From the sequence record PZ476263.1: DNA of 64,000 bases, one strand, 5' to 3'. Position 1 is the first letter of the stretch; the number at the start of each line of letters is the position of its first letter. The notes under the pieces were generated by a model. That model was not told the origin of the DNA. It worked only from the letters and a program-made list of their open reading frames with translations, and ran no database searches. The DNA is from a phage. This document shows positions 37,756 through 61,623 of this stretch, piece by piece. The position numbers were made by a program, and so were the translations under genes.

Positions 37756-38959
37756 ATATGTTCGTTAAAGGTCGCAACTCTTTAACCGGGATCGTATACA
37801 CCTGAAGAAATATCTCTTCACACTTTCGAGTACGATTCCTGTTTCTTTTGCTACGTCACAGAAATCTTTCCCATCAAGTATCATTTTTGTTATCTCTAGT
37901 TCCAACTCTTCTTTAGTTTTGTTTCTTAACTTACTGACCCCAAAAGTTTTATCTTCGGCAAATTTACCGATAAAAAATCTAACTGTCGGTTTCTCTAAGT
38001 TTAGGATCTCACAAATCTTTAAAAGAGTCGCACCTTTCCACCATAAAGATCTTGCTTCTTCTGCAAGATGTTTCTTTTCTTCCACTTCAGAAACACATTT
38101 CCCCATGTCGAAAGTTTTTAAGTATCTTGCTGCAAAGTGCCTTTCTTGTCCAAGGTCCAGAGAGATTTTTGCATACGAATCACCTGCCAGATATCTTTTA
38201 TGGATGTGCAGATACATCTCTCCATAGTTATCAAAGCCGGATTGTTTTGCTCTATTATCTCTTTTTGCCATTGAACTTCTTTCAGATGCGATAGTTTTTA
38301 TGGACTCACCAAAAGAGTTTCCAATTGCATCTGGACTAGGACTCACCGCTGAAAAAGTATTATTAGTCATGTTATAGAATTCTGTATTGTTGGCTGCATC
38401 ATTCTCTAAAAGAACTTTTTCTTCGATTTCACGAAGGAGATCTCTTTTGTCTACAACTTCCAACACCTCAGCTACAAATCTATGACCACTTTTTAAATCC
38501 TTTTTCATATCTGGATTGGAAGAGGACCCAAGATAAGGTTTTCCACTCTTAATCGAGATTATTGTGGGGATTCCATCCACATCTATCACTTTGCATTCAC
38601 TTTTACTTCCGATATATTTGTTCGGGTATTCTTCTTTATCGATGTTTTTCAAGAGATAAACAATGTTCATGTATACGTCCTCCGCTGTATCTTTCAACAC
38701 AGTTCAGACTATATCTTTGACACACTAAAGGATAGCTGAACCAATCTACCCCTAATGTATCACAAACCACTTCGATTGTCTACGCTTACAATCTACGCCT
38801 TCCGGCTAGTCGTTGAACCTTCTACCTGTCTGGTAGCTTGGCTGCTGATTGCCCAATCCTTTAACTTTTTAAACCTTCGCTTTGTATTCCTACTCGCAGT
38901 GGTATAAAGGCTCTAAGGGGTTCCCAGCAATTCAATTTGTTTTATACTGAGGCAGCTTT
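37756..38959 (-). mobile_element. group I intron (with homing endonuclease ORF) in the DNA polymerase gene
   Basis: Minus-strand RNA carries the conserved elements in order: P-like AAUUGCUGGGAAC (38920-38931), Q-like AAUCAGCAGCC (38840-38850), R-like GUUCAACGACUAG (38806-38818), S-like AAGAUAUAGUC (38707-38717). Boundaries approximate. Confidence 0.7.
37765..38670 (-). CDS. GIY-YIG family homing endonuclease (intron-encoded)
   Basis: Starts 'MNIVYLLKNIDKEEYPNKYIGSK...' (IVY...YIGS, cf. I-TevI GIY...YVGS); SD GGAGGA; ORF lies 3' of the intron core. Confidence 0.6.
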   Translation of the reverse strand: MNIVYLLKNIDKEEYPNKYIGSKSECKVIDVDGIPTIISIKSGKPYLGSSSNPDMKKDLKSGHRFVAEVLEVVDKRDLLREIEEKVLLENDAANNTEFYNMTNNTFSAVSPSPDAIGNSFGESIKTIASERSSMAKRDNRAKQSGFDNYGEMYLHIHKRYLAGDSYAKISLDLGQERHFAARYLKTFDMGKCVSEVEEKKHLAEEARSLWWKGATLLKICEILNLEKPTVRFFIGKFAEDKTFGVSKLRNKTKEELELEITKMILDGKDFCDVAKETGIVLESVKRYFFRCIRSRLKSCDL

Positions 38960-40694
38960 AGTTTACCACAGTGTGTTTACGACGGCCTGTATTCGTTATT
39001 CCAGTATAACGTGCAGGTAATTTACCGTCCACCGCAAGTCGAGGATGGTTTAACCAACCTGTATCTACTTTATCCTCTTTCAAAGGATCAAGAACACTTC
39101 GACGGTTACGAAGAGATAGCCATTTTACAATCTGCTTTGCCATATCACCATCGACTCGCTCAAGGTTAGGACAAAGGCCCTGCTGATCCTTAAGCTGCGG
39201 TGATGTTGGTAATGCTCTTGCCTTCTTCCTGAAGAACTTATACATCTTCTCTTTATCTTGCCACTGCTTACCACTGATACCTAAACTTTTCAGAATCAGA
39301 TCGCGATATTCAGTCTGGTCAAGATCATCAATGTATTGACGAACAATGATATCGACTTCGTTATCGGGACGTTGTTTCTTAAACTGGTCCTTCGTCGCAT
39401 CTTTGGTTCGCCACAATGTTGGGACCCAACCCGCATCACGAATAAGGAATTTTTTAACGTCATCCTGATTACCAATACGCATCGGAATCATAATATCCGG
39501 CATCTTTTGATCTTTGATATCCATCAATGCACGGGCCATGTCTTCCGGTGGCAAAGGTACAAGATTTTCCTTTTTCACATTTTGAGAACGAATAAATTCA
39601 GCCATTTTGGATTCATCTTCTACACCATGCTCTACACAATACTTAATTGCAGCAGATGTGAGTGAACCATCGCCCTTAAACGGCTTACTTGGAGCGCCTT
39701 TAAATTCAAGAGCTTCCCAATTCACATTGTAACCTAACTTCTCTAACCATTTCCAGCCCGTACCAGAAAGAGATCCATCTCCTTTAAACGGCTTAGACGG
39801 GAAAGTAGGCTGTGCTGACTTGGACATCTCTTTCTTCGGCAGCTTTGGTTCAACCTCTTCTTCAATTTCTTTCATCATCGTATCAATACGATCACGCAAA
39901 GCTAAACCTTTCTCCACGTCGAAAGTAACACCCTGAATTTCTTGCTCAACCATCAAATAGTCGGTAAGCATACCTCGACGCAAGGCATTCTTCCAATTGA
40001 TGAGCTTCATCTTCTTCGGATCTTTGTCCGATTCATCTTTGTACATGAAACGTTTATCATCCGGCATAGAGTCACATGAAATTTCTTTCATGAGGGCATC
40101 CCATACCATTTCGTTGATGATTACGTCTTCAATAATACGATCACAATATTTCCACAAAGGGAGTCCACGCCAATCTTCGATTGCTACCTTCTGGTTTGCT
40201 ACTCGCATACCCCAAGCTTCAAGTCCATGAGGGCCTACAGGCTTCATTTTACCTGTAACTGGGTTCTTTACCATCTCGGGACAACCGCGCGGCAGAGGGC
40301 GATCTGGATACAGTGTACGGGACATTGAAAGGGTATCGAAGATGTTAACTTGTTTACCATTGATAGTCCCCATGCAACCAGGGTCTGCAAACATATCGTA
40401 TGTTGTTCCAAACATCTTTTTAAACAGCTGTAAGTCATAGCCGAAGATATTATGGATAGCAACAGCTTTTGGTTCAGTCACAAACCACTCATTAAGTTCT
40501 TCCAACTTACGGATCTTAAAGTTCTTACCTTTGGATTGAATAAACTTAACCGCTTGCTCGTAGCCTTCGCGGTTCGGATCGATAAAAATATTCCAATTGT
40601 CCTTTTTGTACTCTTTAAAAAGAACACAGTGAACAAGATCAACTTCTGTCAACAGGCCGTTAGCCTCTGCATCTCCAATAAACAAACCTTTCAT
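38958..40694 (-). CDS. DNA polymerase (family A), 5' exon with 3'-5' exonuclease domain
   Basis: N-terminus 'MKGLFIGDAEANGLL' matches the T7-type Exo I motif; ends '...YTGITNTGRR' (cf. TGR..PNL.NIP) before running into intron sequence. Confidence 0.75.
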   Translation of the reverse strand: MKGLFIGDAEANGLLTEVDLVHCVLFKEYKKDNWNIFIDPNREGYEQAVKFIQSKGKNFKIRKLEELNEWFVTEPKAVAIHNIFGYDLQLFKKMFGTTYDMFADPGCMGTINGKQVNIFDTLSMSRTLYPDRPLPRGCPEMVKNPVTGKMKPVGPHGLEAWGMRVANQKVAIEDWRGLPLWKYCDRIIEDVIINEMVWDALMKEISCDSMPDDKRFMYKDESDKDPKKMKLINWKNALRRGMLTDYLMVEQEIQGVTFDVEKGLALRDRIDTMMKEIEEEVEPKLPKKEMSKSAQPTFPSKPFKGDGSLSGTGWKWLEKLGYNVNWEALEFKGAPSKPFKGDGSLTSAAIKYCVEHGVEDESKMAEFIRSQNVKKENLVPLPPEDMARALMDIKDQKMPDIMIPMRIGNQDDVKKFLIRDAGWVPTLWRTKDATKDQFKKQRPDNEVDIIVRQYIDDLDQTEYRDLILKSLGISGKQWQDKEKMYKFFRKKARALPTSPQLKDQQGLCPNLERVDGDMAKQIVKWLSLRNRRSVLDPLKEDKVDTGWLNHPRLAVDGKLPARYTGITNTGRRKHTVVN

Positions 40695-53104: not shown

Positions 53105-53548
53105 TTATTCTCCTGTTAAGTTAAGCTTTGTACCTTTACGAGATTCTAAGAAATTTTTCAAATCTCCGAACTTACCCTTGGGTTTTTCTAAATAAGATGG
53201 TGCTTTATTATAATCCCACTCTTCCTTGGTCTTGTCAATGTCTTTTACACGATCCTCTATGAGTTTTCGAAAAGTGTAAGCTGAATAACCAGAGCGAATA
53301 ACTTTTGGAGGTACGTAGCGCATAAGTCCTGCATCTATCGCCCTTTTGGACAGCCTCAGCTTTTGGTTGTGCATCTTTATACATTTTAAAACATATTGAG
53401 AAAATTCTTCTTTGAATGCTGGATGAATCAATGATTCAGGTGCACCAAACTGAACCTTATTGTAATTTCCATTTCCATCATTAAAGTAACATACTTCTGG
53501 ACGACCTGCAATCACTTCAACATTAAATTCTTCAACTGTGAACTTCAT
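53105..53548 (-). CDS. hypothetical protein
   Basis: 147-aa ORF. Confidence 0.4.
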   Translation of the reverse strand: MKFTVEEFNVEVIAGRPEVCYFNDGNGNYNKVQFGAPESLIHPAFKEEFSQYVLKCIKMHNQKLRLSKRAIDAGLMRYVPPKVIRSGYSAYTFRKLIEDRVKDIDKTKEEWDYNKAPSYLEKPKGKFGDLKNFLESRKGTKLNLTGE

Positions 53549-53581
53549 AATAAAAATGCCCTCACTGTTTCCAATAAGGGC

Positions 53582-53610
53582 ATATTAATATAATTTTAAC
53601 TACCTGTCAA
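53582..53610 (-). promoter_or_regulatory. sigma70-like promoter
   Basis: TTGACA-N17-TAATAT; a 7-bp hairpin (ATGCCCT...AGGGCAT) follows in the leader. Confidence 0.45.
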
Positions 53611-56117: not shown

Positions 56118-56147
56118 TTTATTATCCTCTTTTGTTTAAGTAGGGTC

Positions 56148-56175
56148 ATTATACATGACCCTTATTGTGTGTCAA
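56148..56175 (-). promoter_or_regulatory. sigma70-like promoter with -10 inside an inverted repeat
   Basis: TTGACA-N16-TATAAT; 7-bp inverted repeat GGGTCAT/ATGACCC spans the -10. Confidence 0.5.
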
Positions 56176-57612: not shown

Positions 57613-58143
57613 ATGAAAAAAGATAAAGAGCTTGCAATTGCAATCAGTCTTGCAGCACATCACCACGTTGATCAAACAGATAAAGGAGGTAACGTATACA
57701 TCCTTCACCCTTTGGAAGTTATGAATACTCTAGCAAGTCGTGGTGATTATCATCTTATGGCTGCTGGTGTTCTTCACGACATTCTGGAGGATTGCCCTGT
57801 TACTGAACAAGATTTATTGGACGCAGGGATTAGTATAAAGACAGTAAGAACAGTGAAGAAAGTTACAAAGGTTAAGGGTCAGAAACCTCGGGACTATCTC
57901 TTAGGTATCTTGTATGACATTAACGCTTCAAAAGTTAAGTTGGCAGATCTTAAGCATAACTTGGATCTTCTACGTGTTCGTGAAATCGACGAGAAAGCAG
58001 TAAAAAGAATTAAAAAATATGTTGACATGTATACCGTAATAGAGCAATCTATTGCCTGGCAACAAAAGAACTTTGAAGATTCGGATTCTTACTATAATGC
58101 AAGAGATGAGTATCTGGAGGAGTTAATCAAAATACTGAAATAA
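57613..58143 (+). CDS. HD-domain protein of the RelA/SpoT hydrolase type (putative small alarmone hydrolase)
   Basis: 'LAAHHHVDQTDKGGNVYILHPLEV...AAGVLHDILEDCPV' matches the (p)ppGpp-hydrolase HD signature. Confidence 0.55.
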   Translation: MKKDKELAIAISLAAHHHVDQTDKGGNVYILHPLEVMNTLASRGDYHLMAAGVLHDILEDCPVTEQDLLDAGISIKTVRTVKKVTKVKGQKPRDYLLGILYDINASKVKLADLKHNLDLLRVREIDEKAVKRIKKYVDMYTVIEQSIAWQQKNFEDSDSYYNARDEYLEELIKILK

Positions 58144-58159: not shown

Positions 58160-58188
58160 TTGACACGATAAACAAAACGCTCCATAAT
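58160..58188 (+). promoter_or_regulatory. sigma70-like promoter
   Basis: TTGACA-N17-CATAAT upstream of the AAA+ gene. Confidence 0.5.
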
Positions 58189-58220: not shown

Positions 58221-59450
58221 ATGCAAGCAACTTATCAACGTATGGACCAGAGCATGTTCAAAAAACGTATCAGCATTCGTCATATGGAAGCGCTTATTCG
58301 CTTGGGTGCATCGATTGGTAAAACTGTGTTCTTTTATGGCGGCGCTGGTCTGGGTAAATCCGAGAAAGTTCGTCAGATCGCAGACGCAATGTTCCCAAAT
58401 CGCGTAGGTAATAACCTCTGTGATGTTCGTCTGTCCGATAAAGAACCACAAGACGTTGCAGGTATTCCGATCCCTGTTACCTTGATTGATGAGAAAACTG
58501 GTAAAGAAGTTACTCGTACCGTTTATGCTGTACCAAACTTCTGGCCTACCGATCCTGATTGGCAGGGTATTGTTTTCCTTGATGAACTGCCTAACGCCCC
58601 GCTGGGTACTCAGCACTCGGCATATCAGGTAATTCTGGATCACGTTGCAGGTGAGCATAAATTCCCTGAAGGCTGCGTGTTTGTAGGTGCGGGTAACCGT
58701 GATACCGATGGTGCAGGTACTACCACAATGCCAGGTCCATTGGTTAACCGTATGATCTTGGCAGAAATTGATTATAACTTGGATGTTTGGATTGAAGATT
58801 ATGCGATTCCTTATCGTTTACATCCGAACGTAATTGGTTTCCTCAAGCAATTCCCTGAACATTTTTACACAGGGGATGTTGAGAACCGAAGCACTCAGGT
58901 ATTCGCTTCGCCTCGCCAATGGAAAACTGTTTCAGATATCCTTTATAAATATGATCAAGGAACTATGTCTGAATTTATCGCAGAGGTGGCGATTGCAGGT
59001 ACAGTTGGCGAAGGTCTTGAAGTTCAAGTATTGGCTTATCATATGCGTACTAAAGAACTTCCGGCGATTGAAGACATTTTCAGCGGTAAAACTAAAGAGC
59101 ATAAGTTGGATCGTAGTAAAAACGACCTGGTTTATGTATTGGCACAGACTGGTCTTCGTAAGATGGAAGATGAAGTCATGGATAATGAGATTAAGGATGA
59201 AGATTTCCTGGAGCGTTCAGGTAACTTCTTAACCTTTATGTACAATAACTATTACGATAACAACAAGGATACTCTGATTGCGATGATCTTGGGTGTATTC
59301 CGTGGTCCAAATGACAAGCCGTCCATTTTGACTGTTAACCCTCGTCGTCAGAAGATGATCCCGATGATGCGTAAGACTTGTCCGACCATCTCAGCTGTTG
59401 TTATGGAGTACATGACTCGTTATGGTCAACTGATTAAAGATTTTGAATAA
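58221..59450 (+). CDS. AAA+ ATPase, MoxR/CobS-like
   Basis: Walker A 'GGAGLGKSE', Walker B 'IVFLDELPNA'; followed by a VWA-domain gene. Confidence 0.55.
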   Translation: MQATYQRMDQSMFKKRISIRHMEALIRLGASIGKTVFFYGGAGLGKSEKVRQIADAMFPNRVGNNLCDVRLSDKEPQDVAGIPIPVTLIDEKTGKEVTRTVYAVPNFWPTDPDWQGIVFLDELPNAPLGTQHSAYQVILDHVAGEHKFPEGCVFVGAGNRDTDGAGTTTMPGPLVNRMILAEIDYNLDVWIEDYAIPYRLHPNVIGFLKQFPEHFYTGDVENRSTQVFASPRQWKTVSDILYKYDQGTMSEFIAEVAIAGTVGEGLEVQVLAYHMRTKELPAIEDIFSGKTKEHKLDRSKNDLVYVLAQTGLRKMEDEVMDNEIKDEDFLERSGNFLTFMYNNYYDNNKDTLIAMILGVFRGPNDKPSILTVNPRRQKMIPMMRKTCPTISAVVMEYMTRYGQLIKDFE

Positions 59451-59455
59451 AATCG

Positions 59456-59484
59456 TTGACAACAAAATCTAACTGACTTATTAT
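59456..59484 (+). promoter_or_regulatory. sigma70-like promoter
   Basis: TTGACA-N17-TATTAT. Confidence 0.5.
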
Positions 59485-59496
59485 AGGGGCATCTCG

Positions 59497-59517
59497 AAAG
59501 GGGTGTCCCTTTTTAAT
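59497..59517 (+). terminator. terminator-like hairpin between promoter and start codon
   Basis: AAAGGG-GTGT-CCCTTT followed by TTT, located between the -10 and the SD of the VWA gene. Confidence 0.35.
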
Positions 59518-59532
59518 ACCGGAGGATATGTA

Positions 59533-61050
59533 ATGATTGACCAAAAAGAAAAAGATATGATTCAACAACAAGACTCAGAAGCTGTTCGTATTATCGAGGC
59601 AGCAAGCCTTCAGTTGATGCGATTTAAACCGTTTTACGGAGTCATGCTGTCATCCATGCCCGTTAAGAACGGTACTTCATGGTGCTCCACAATGGCAACT
59701 GATGGTCGTAACCTCTATTATCATCCAGAATTTATCGCAGGGATGACAGATGAGCGTAAACAGTTAGTTCTTTCACGCCTGAAAGCTTCTGTGAGCGATC
59801 CTCAGCGCCTTAAAGAACTTACCCTGTACATCGAGTCATTTTATCGTCGTAAGACCGCCAGAGAGGTCGCTCTTATCCTTGAGCACGAATGTGACCACGT
59901 AGTTTCTGATCACGCCAGTCGTGGGAAAGGTTTTAATCACGAGCTTTACAATATTGCTGCGGATCATCGTATCAATACAACGGCAGTCCTGATCCATCAA
60001 AAAGGTGATGCATTAGGTAAGGCTTGGTTCCCTCAGGGTGAAAAGACAGTATTTGATCCGTTGCAAGAGTTTGGTTTTATGCATTGGGCTTATTGTGATT
60101 TCAAATTCAAAGATATGTATACAGAGCAGATCTATGAAATTTTGAACAAAGAAGAAAATGAGAAAGATAAATCTGATGGGAAAGGAAATGGATCGGGTAA
60201 CGGTGGGCCGGATGGCGATCTGAAAGGTGTTGACCAACACACAGATGAAAACGGTGATCCTGATGATGGTAATAATGATGTTGAAGATGCATTAGGTATC
60301 GACAAGAAAAGCAAACCAAAGCAGACAGCCGAAGAGCGTCAATATAACGATGGTGTAATGCGTCGAGCTATTGAGAATGCTGTTCAGGCGGCGGGTTCTG
60401 GTGCGCCGGAAGATGCTCGTCTCTTTGTTGAAGCTGACGGTAAGCCAAAGATTAACTACCTTCGTTTGCTTCGTCGTACTATTGAGCGTTTATTTAAACA
60501 GGATGTGTCTTATCGTCGTTTATCTCGTCGTAGTCACTCTTTGACTCGTACATTGCGTGGTGCTGGTTATATTAGTTCTCGACAAACTGTTGGTTTACCT
60601 TCTCACAACAAGCAGAAGACTATTCGTGCGGGTGTTTTCTTTGATGTGTCGGGTTCTTTTAACGATGAACTTCTTAAGCCAACAATGCGAGAGATCAGGG
60701 GTCTTTGTAATCTTTATGATGAGTTTGAAGTTACAATGGCCTGTTGGTCAACTAAGGTTGGTAACATAGAAACTTACACCAAAAAGAATATTAAGGACAT
60801 GGCTAACTATAAGATTAAGACTACTTTTGGTACGGACGTATCTTGTGTCTTTGAAGAGCTAGATAAGATGGAAAATCCTATGGATCAGATCATTATCTAT
60901 ACGGATGGTTACTTCTCTGATGTTTCTCAAACAAAAGATTGGGCCAAAAAGTATGGTAAGAATGTTCTTTGGATCATCCTTGGTCGTGGAGGAAATTCTT
61001 TCAAACCTCCATTCGGCAACGCGATTGATTTTGATAAGTACGTTAAGTAA
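59533..61050 (+). CDS. VWA-domain protein with N-terminal HExxH motif
   Basis: ATG with SD GGAGGA. 'LEHECDHVV' (HExxH), acidic Gly/Asp-rich linker, MIDAS-like 'FFDVSGSF'. Confidence 0.55.
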   Translation: MIDQKEKDMIQQQDSEAVRIIEAASLQLMRFKPFYGVMLSSMPVKNGTSWCSTMATDGRNLYYHPEFIAGMTDERKQLVLSRLKASVSDPQRLKELTLYIESFYRRKTAREVALILEHECDHVVSDHASRGKGFNHELYNIAADHRINTTAVLIHQKGDALGKAWFPQGEKTVFDPLQEFGFMHWAYCDFKFKDMYTEQIYEILNKEENEKDKSDGKGNGSGNGGPDGDLKGVDQHTDENGDPDDGNNDVEDALGIDKKSKPKQTAEERQYNDGVMRRAIENAVQAAGSGAPEDARLFVEADGKPKINYLRLLRRTIERLFKQDVSYRRLSRRSHSLTRTLRGAGYISSRQTVGLPSHNKQKTIRAGVFFDVSGSFNDELLKPTMREIRGLCNLYDEFEVTMACWSTKVGNIETYTKKNIKDMANYKIKTTFGTDVSCVFEELDKMENPMDQIIIYTDGYFSDVSQTKDWAKKYGKNVLWIILGRGGNSFKPPFGNAIDFDKYVK

Positions 61051-61059
61051 GGAGGTATC

Positions 61060-61431
61060 TTGGACCAGTACGGTACTAAACACAGTATCCTTCGTAAAGG
61101 AGGACACCTCACTGTGTTCTCTATGGATCCCAAAGGGAATTTTAAATCAGAATGGATAATAACTTACAACGGCAAGGGTTTTAAAATGACAAGGTACACT
61201 TACCCTAGTTTTATTAGAAAAGATATTGTCAGCGAAGATACATTCTTGTATCCTGATAAGCTTAAGGATGAGGATATTGATTTTATCGAGGCACTCTTAG
61301 GGACACTAACTGATCAAGAGAGATCTTTGATTAAGCTTTGTTCCTTACTTGTTGCAAAATGGGCGGCGGGTCATTCAGAAGAAGATTTGTTAACAACGAC
61401 TAACAACGTAGTTAAGAGTTGGTCTAACTAA
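61060..61431 (+). CDS. hypothetical protein
   Basis: TTG start with SD AAGGAGG right after the VWA gene stop. Confidence 0.4.
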   Translation: MDQYGTKHSILRKGGHLTVFSMDPKGNFKSEWIITYNGKGFKMTRYTYPSFIRKDIVSEDTFLYPDKLKDEDIDFIEALLGTLTDQERSLIKLCSLLVAKWAAGHSEEDLLTTTNNVVKSWSN

Positions 61432-61530
61432 CAACATTCTCTTTATGCCCGTTTAGGCATACAATACTATATTAGATAATAAAACCCCTCGCTACGCTCA
61501 CCATTCTGGCCCTGGGGTTTTATATATCTA

Positions 61531-61594: not shown

Positions 61595-61623
61595 TTGACA
61601 CACAAACATACTGAAGATATAGT
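61595..61623 (+). promoter_or_regulatory. sigma70-like promoter
   Basis: TTGACA-N17-TATAGT. Confidence 0.5.

Follow-up and report, generated by a model that had tools for sequence, protein, structure and literature searches.

Fold-back inhibition in IS10 and IS50 depends on where an RNA begins: RNA reading in from outside has additional sequence at its 5' end, which pairs with the start region, while the element's own transcripts are unaffected. At pyrC and pyrD, start-site switching operates from one promoter, with nucleotide pools choosing the start and a hairpin controlling translation. Behind the phage lambda promoter PR' lies the terminator tR', near +194 in the promoter's own transcript (6S RNA), and it is overcome by Q loaded at the promoter. 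In phage T4, gene e (lysozyme) and I-TevI each have a late promoter within a hairpin that is formed only by early, upstream-initiated transcripts (PMC3014915). Here we examined 64,000 nucleotides of phage DNA (sequence record PZ476263.1, hereafter the window) and describe an 82-nt gap separating two of its plus-strand genes, one for a MoxR-like AAA ATPase and one for a protein with a VWA-like domain. We conclude that this gap probably consists of the terminator of the ATPase gene fused to the promoter of the VWA-like gene, an arrangement in which RNA arriving from upstream would be stopped and RNA begun locally would escape. The coordinates of all features are collected in Table 1.

The promoter of the VWA-like gene, given as TTGACA-N17-TATTAT in a first-pass annotation of the same DNA, is present to the letter and matches the consensus at 11 of 12 positions. 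That annotation had also placed a hairpin, AAAGGG-GTGT-CCCTTT, 12 nt past the -10. The hairpin can be drawn where it was described, but the favoured fold is a larger stem that abuts the -10, its first base being the one immediately after the hexamer, and the smaller structure is an alternative available only to RNA that lacks the 5' arm of the larger one. The large hairpin (59485-59510) has 11 pairs, three of them G-U, and a folding energy of -17.6 kcal/mol, which puts it in the top three of the window's terminator-like hairpins by stability; a terminator scan independently flagged the same structure. The reverse strand folds differently (-12.4 kcal/mol) and has no U-run after the stem, and the G-U pairs make the hairpin specific to the plus strand. 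Also as annotated, a U-run, a Shine-Dalgarno (SD) sequence and an ATG follow (TTTTT, GGAGG and ATG), and the gene downstream is of the VWA kind, Pfam resolving its product into DUF2201_N plus DUF2201 (VWA-like).

Several features of this structure are those of an intrinsic terminator: a GC-containing stem-loop, an adjoining U-run, a position at a gene end (the hairpin starts 35 nt past the ATPase stop codon, on the same strand) and compensatory conservation. The record of phage phiTE annotates the homologous hairpin as a terminator. One of the two functions first proposed for the hairpin, that of an upstream-gene terminator lying beyond the next promoter, is thus borne out by its position, its stability, the phiTE annotation and compensatory changes in its outer pairs.

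The position of the start site decides which RNAs could form this terminator. The distance from the -10 to the start is 6-9 bp for E. coli RNA polymerase and is most commonly 7 bp (PMC5730371). By the 7-bp rule the local promoter would start at A59491, which is the A of a conserved CATC motif and is preceded by a pyrimidine; we infer a start within 59490-59493, with A59491 the most likely. Every one of these positions lies inside the 5' arm, and RNA begun there would lose 5-8 of the 11 arm bases (6 if A59491), and with them the outer GGGG:CCCU half of the stem. If transcription does start within the arm, RNA reading out of the ATPase gene would therefore be able to form the terminator and RNA from the local promoter would not. 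The first-pass annotation had held that transcripts from both sources must cross the hairpin, which is probably wrong, as the promoter's own RNA most likely begins inside it.

In the arrangement that we favour, the hairpin and its U5 would close the ATPase transcription unit, and the 5' arm of this terminator would overlie the stretch from the -10 to the start site of a sigma-70-type promoter (59456-59484). A polymerase that had started at 58160, the promoter of the ATPase gene, or still farther upstream would cross the local promoter, make the 11-bp hairpin and release at the U-run. A polymerase starting at about A59491 would make RNA without the outer half of the stem, would meet no terminator and would continue into the VWA-like gene. 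One unit would be stopped and the next started, with the level of the VWA-like gene set mainly by its own promoter, and because upstream polymerases would pass over that promoter, some occlusion may occur. Termination at the U-run and escape of the local transcripts are both predictions from this geometry.

Compared with the known systems, the likeness to T4 gene e and I-TevI would be that RNA from a promoter in the 5' half of a hairpin escapes it, and the geometry fits this both here and at a second module of the window described below, taking the starts as predicted. The second module is also like T4 in carrying an SD-like GAGGG in its 3' arm. However, the T4 hairpins hide the ribosome binding site and block translation and are not terminators, whereas the hairpin at 59485-59510 is followed by a U-run and leaves the SD sequence GGAGG free, 10 nt past the stem. 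The promoters differ as well, being late and gp55-dependent in T4 (TATAAATA) and of the sigma-70 type with a -35 here, and the phage families are unrelated. As in IS10 and IS50, the element's own transcripts would begin inside the pairing region, but there it is transposase translation that is affected, with no U-run and no termination, and the genetic context differs. Like lambda PR'-tR', which the first-pass description brings to mind, the site combines a strong phage promoter with an intrinsic terminator close behind; in contrast to lambda, the predicted start lies inside the hairpin, which argues against a reading of the lambda type. No Q gene, Q-binding element or pause signal was seen, with no search aimed at them. 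Finally, the site shares with pyrC and pyrD the dependence of a 5'-end hairpin on the exact start relative to the 5' arm, but it would involve two kinds of RNA from two promoters, and all plausible starts (59490-59493) lack the outer stem.

Within the same phage, the usual order is terminator then promoter, as at 46657-46636/46630, 36837-36816/36793 and 32015-31994/31975 (all on the minus strand). These pairs are built from the same parts, a GC-rich tetraloop hairpin with a T-run and a TTGACA-N17-TATAAT-N5-CATC promoter, and presumably do the same job. In the fused module, by comparison, the promoter comes first and the terminator overlaps it, the 5' arm of the latter spanning from just past the -10 to +5; an upstream polymerase would traverse the promoter on its way to the point of termination, and RNA from that promoter would have its start inside the terminator. 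Both components are thus ordinary, and it is their order and overlap that are unusual; to these the predicted geometry adds a start site inside the terminator stem. We found no description of this arrangement for these phages in the literature, and nothing relevant on overlapping promoters and terminators or on start sites within a terminator.

The window belongs to a large virulent phage of the subfamily Vequintavirinae. Its nearest records are the E. coli phages LTH01, UPEC06, A5-4, A7_1, W70 and A73 (about 78% nucleotide identity), followed by Certrevirus phages of Cronobacter, Pectobacterium, Enterobacter and Klebsiella (about 65-69%). We compared 10 alleles of the gap from related Vequintavirinae, spanning about 65-78% nucleotide identity to the window. 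Phages rV5 (Vequintavirus) and KNP2 (Mydovirus) were of no use for comparison, their ATPase being at about 37% identity and no VWA-like gene coming after it. Sequence-only MAFFT alignment shifts the 3' arms out of register between clades, so covariation was tabulated from the 10 alleles anchored on CATC, with the stems kept in register.

The fused promoter and hairpin are kept in nine alleles, and the tenth (phiTE type) keeps the -35 and the hairpin but not the -10. No stem pair is broken in any of the 10 alleles. Counting outward from CATC, the first pair switches between G:U and U:G, the second and fourth switch between G:C and A:U, and the fifth is A:U, G:C or U:A, so that four stem positions have changed on both sides. 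The loop varies (GAAA, UUCG or UUA), arm and loop sequences differ completely between clades while pairing is kept, and a T-run follows the hairpin in every allele. RNAalifold run on the plain MAFFT alignment returned the same helix with three compensatory pairs, the few "broken" cells corresponding to a one-column register shift. On this comparative evidence, that is, on conservation with compensatory changes and not on energy, we take the hairpin to be real. The covarying outer pairs sit between the -10 and +1, upstream of any plausible local start, and yet they are kept by compensatory change; the RNA that folds must therefore come from upstream.

The promoter, for its part, is a member of a real class. 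A search for TTGACA-N16-18-nAnnnT-N5-CATC returned eight sites in the window, the one at 59456 included, against 0.07 expected; all eight precede open reading frames (ORFs), and the same geometry was found at 14 loci from relatives. The related genus Certrevirus is reported to have a class of sigma-70-like early promoters (PMC7344957). In the window, CATC(A/G)A is fixed across the class and lies 5 nt past the -10. This motif probably marks the start site, and, as conservation runs beyond +1, the first bases of the transcript may have a further role. Among the relatives, the phiTE-type allele excepted, the -10 reads TAATAT, TAAAAT, TAGAAT or TATAGT at the same place, always with T1, A2 and T6. 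Both hexamers, a spacing of 16-17 nt and CATC 4-5 nt past the -10 are kept in 9 of the 10 alleles as the sequence of the spacer drifts, and for this reason the hexamers look selected.

Table 1. Coordinates of the fused module, its neighbours and related features (window positions unless a locus label, L and a number, is given; such labels denote loci of relatives).
Feature	Position	Strand	Remarks
-35, TTGACA	59456..59461	+	invariant in the 10 relatives' alleles except TTGACT in PcCB7V
-10, TATTAT	59479..59484	+	17-nt spacer from the -35
CATC motif	59490..59493	+	predicted start A59491, 7 nt past the -10, by the 7-bp rule
Terminator hairpin (putative)	59485..59510	+	5' arm AGGGGCATCTC 59485-59495; GAAA loop 59496-59499; 3' arm GGGGTGTCCCT 59500-59510
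T-run, TTTTT	59510..59514	+	T59510 also pairs with A59485, closing the stem; relatives have TTTTTCTTTT or TTTTTT
Small hairpin, AAAGGG-GTGT-CCCTTT	59497..59512	+	from the first-pass annotation; alternative fold, only for RNA without the 5' arm
SD GGAGG and ATG of the VWA-like gene	59521-59525 and 59533-59535	+	both outside the hairpin
Upstream gene, MoxR-like AAA ATPase	58221..59450	+	ORF; stop TAA 59448-59450; its transcripts are those proposed to be terminated
Promoter of the ATPase gene	58160-58188	+	promoter scan; member of the CATC class
Downstream gene, DUF2201_N metallopeptidase-like plus DUF2201 VWA-like	59533..61050	+	Pfam PF13203, E = 2e-24; PF09967, E = 3e-7
CATC-class promoters	31975, 32792, 34865, 36793, 46630	-	
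CATC-class promoters	58160, 59456, 62918	+	
Second fused module	53546..53610	-	TTGACA 53610-53605; TAATAT 53587-53582; hairpin 53583-53556; TTTT 53555-53552; ATG 53548-53546
Certrevirus loci with TGA inside the -35	L006, L011, L013, L014, L016, L017		end of the ATPase gene
VWA-like protein in relatives	L006 3125-4678; L016 2126-3682; L017 2126-3685; L005 3604-5154		
HNH genes in relatives	L003 4325-4819; L008 3052-3549; L005 3090-3602; L012 4007-4282; L015 2090-2495		

A scan of 246 kb, made up of the window and the relatives' loci, found fused modules at only two orthologous loci, the one described above and a second on the minus strand of the window. The hairpin of the second, ATGCCCTTATTG-GAAA-CAGTGAGGGCAT (53583-53556), folds at -18.1 kcal/mol, and the sole SD-like run, GAGGG at 53563-53559, sits in its 3' arm, so that read-through RNA would have its ribosome binding site masked as well. 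Ahead of the orthologous gene, this module is kept in A73, phiTE (as an annotated terminator), KaOmega and CR9; the first 50 kb of rV5 contain no annotated or detectable fused module. Other candidates in the window, at the terminators 13217, 25505, 35271 and 32015, were discarded, their best upstream promoters matching at 8-9 of 12 positions, which is background. Closer inspection showed 25505 to be an ordinary terminator separating two genes and 32015 to follow the customary order of terminator then promoter.

The occurrence of the arrangement at two unrelated conserved loci, across the window lineage, the LTH01 group and Certrevirus, suggests that selection, and not chance crowding, is responsible. 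We put forward tentatively, and at somewhat less than even chances, that fusing promoter and terminator may be a reusable way of sorting transcripts by origin, in which RNA from upstream would be stopped and the module's own RNA would go unnoticed. Under such a design, downstream output could drop as upstream transcription rises, through promoter occlusion, and at the second locus the hairpin would in addition hide the ribosome binding site in read-through RNA.

A number of points weigh against a terminator fused to an active promoter at the ATPase-VWA gap. The allele of phiTE, PcCB7V and DU_PP_I has a degenerate -10 (GATCAT) yet keeps the -35 and the hairpin, with an HNH gene coming next, and evidently the terminator is able to exist without a good promoter. 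In Certrevirus the -35 TTGACA overlaps the TGA stop codon of the ATPase gene, so that the conservation of this hexamer could in part be due to coding constraint. With five U and then AAU the U-run is short, and the hairpin taken alone is only modestly better than shuffled sequences (z = -1.96; 6 of 200 shuffles reached a fold at least as stable). In this phage, RNA begun at the promoter can still form a small hairpin that pairs an A-tract with a U-tract at -7.8 kcal/mol, and some premature termination of that RNA is possible. Our literature search yielded no 5' or 3' transcript-end mapping for this phage or its Vequintavirinae relatives.

The phiTE-type alleles and the overlap of the Certrevirus -35 with the stop codon would also fit a simpler account in which the hairpin ends the ATPase RNA, the promoter is inactive or negligible and the VWA-like gene is expressed by read-through. 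In the phiTE-type alleles the VWA gene indeed follows the HNH gene without a promoter of its own, and promoter-like sites matching at 9 of 12 positions or better occur at chance frequency in this region (23 found, 21.8 expected, no enrichment). The site at 59456, however, is an 11/12 match with the exact -10-N5-CATC geometry of a class that exceeds expectation as given above, and T1, A2 and T6 of its -10 are kept in 9 of 10 alleles together with the 16-17-nt spacing, the spacer sequence drifting. In the window lineage, moreover, the -35 begins 5 nt past the ATPase stop codon and is still intact, and in P7_Pc the module has stayed with the VWA gene although an HNH gene was inserted upstream of it. 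We consider a terminator acting alone unlikely on these grounds.

The small hairpin underlies the other function proposed in the first-pass annotation, that of an attenuator, in which the promoter's RNA would meet a terminator about 20 nt into its leader (59497-59512 plus U) and read-through would be regulated. The promoter and U-run are positioned as that annotation described, and RNA from 59491 can fold as GAAAGGG-GUGU-CCCUUUU with the energy and tract pairing just given. But at most 5 nt would lie ahead of this hairpin, too few to accommodate a sensor, leader peptide or anti-terminator; its GC core is 3 bp, and its stem consumes four of the five U of the T-run. It is weakened by an A-C mismatch in the LTH01 group, the nearest relatives, and is absent in Certrevirus: the truncated RNAs of relatives fold at -5.3 kcal/mol in the former and at -0.8 to -3.8 kcal/mol in the latter, compared to -14 to -17.6 kcal/mol for the full hairpins. 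Covariation backs the large hairpin, which, if the start is where we place it, is not wholly contained in the leader transcript. A permissive Rfam scan of 59300-59700 gave sub-threshold chance matches only (best 21 bits, against a gathering score of 56 bits), and at the gathering threshold the whole window has a single match, a group I intron elsewhere. With no leader ahead of the hairpin, no Rfam match and a weak, unconserved hairpin in the promoter's own transcript, attenuation seems to us quite improbable.

Were the start instead at or before 59485, the whole hairpin would form the 5' end of the VWA mRNA and could slow 5'-end-dependent decay. Terminal stem-loops of this kind protect mRNA in ompA and T7 gene 10, and a stable hairpin does stand between promoter and ribosome binding site. 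Such a start would be 0-1 nt past the -10, compared to the 6-9 bp of E. coli RNA polymerase (PMC5730371); a U-run directly after the hairpin would be unnecessary, and the other seven CATC-class promoters have no such hairpin. A stabilising role is accordingly very improbable. Alternatively, the inverted repeat past the -10 might act as DNA, binding a dimeric phage or host repressor of the promoter. The start site is a common position for an operator, and another promoter of the window (56175-56148, minus strand) overlaps a perfect palindrome. Against this, with G-U at 3 of the 11 pairs the DNA lacks symmetry; arms and loop differ between clades with the pairing kept, which is the signature of an RNA helix; and the T-run after the hairpin in every allele is a further point against an operator, which we hold to be extremely improbable. 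The attenuator, stabiliser and operator readings were rejected on the points raised against each.

If the start is as geometry predicts, about 60 nt of DNA would end one transcription unit, start the next and blind the terminator to RNA from the local promoter. Rather than forming one operon, the gene for the ATPase and that for its likely VWA-like partner would then be transcribed separately. For annotation, this implies that a promoter call should not be discarded because an apparent terminator follows it. The fused module would extend to an intrinsic terminator the principle of a promoter inside a hairpin, seen in the translational control of T4, and would offer engineering a natural template for a compact insulating part. 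It is a variant of known phage logic; it is no new kind of regulator, and it opens no long-standing question.

The ATPase matches PHROG 1297 ("ATPase") with E = 2e-100 and is annotated as a MoxR ATPase in relatives, and the ATG of the VWA-like gene agrees with the starts annotated in relatives. Several RefSeq records, and PHROG 1314, name the DUF2201_N plus DUF2201 protein "HNH endonuclease". Pfam finds no HNH domain in it, and the name appears to be an error copied from record to record. The plus-strand ORF 57613-58143, immediately upstream of the ATPase gene, encodes an HD_4 domain of the RelA/SpoT-hydrolase type, which relatives annotate as GTP pyrophosphokinase or metal-dependent phosphohydrolase.

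HNH homing endonuclease genes recur in the ATPase-VWA gap of relatives, landing at three different points: after the SD sequence in A5-4 and A7_1, between the ATPase gene and the promoter in P7_Pc, and after the terminator in phiTE, PcCB7V and DU_PP_I. The HNH gene inserted in P7_Pc ends on the same TGA within TTGACA (L008 3549).

Elsewhere in the window, the promoter at 56175-56148 on the minus strand is a perfect 12/12 match and overlaps the palindrome AGGGTCAT-N5-ATGACCCT (56142-56175). Its -10 lies inside the loop and 3' arm of the palindrome, with no U-run after it on the minus strand, and the palindrome could be an operator or an RNA hairpin. A hairpin AAACCCC...GGGGTTT (61482-61520) is terminator-like on both strands and falls after ORF 61060-61431 and before a promoter at 61595. 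The group I intron lies at 38685-39052 on the minus strand and matches Rfam RF00028 over the full model length (73.8 bits, E = 7e-17).

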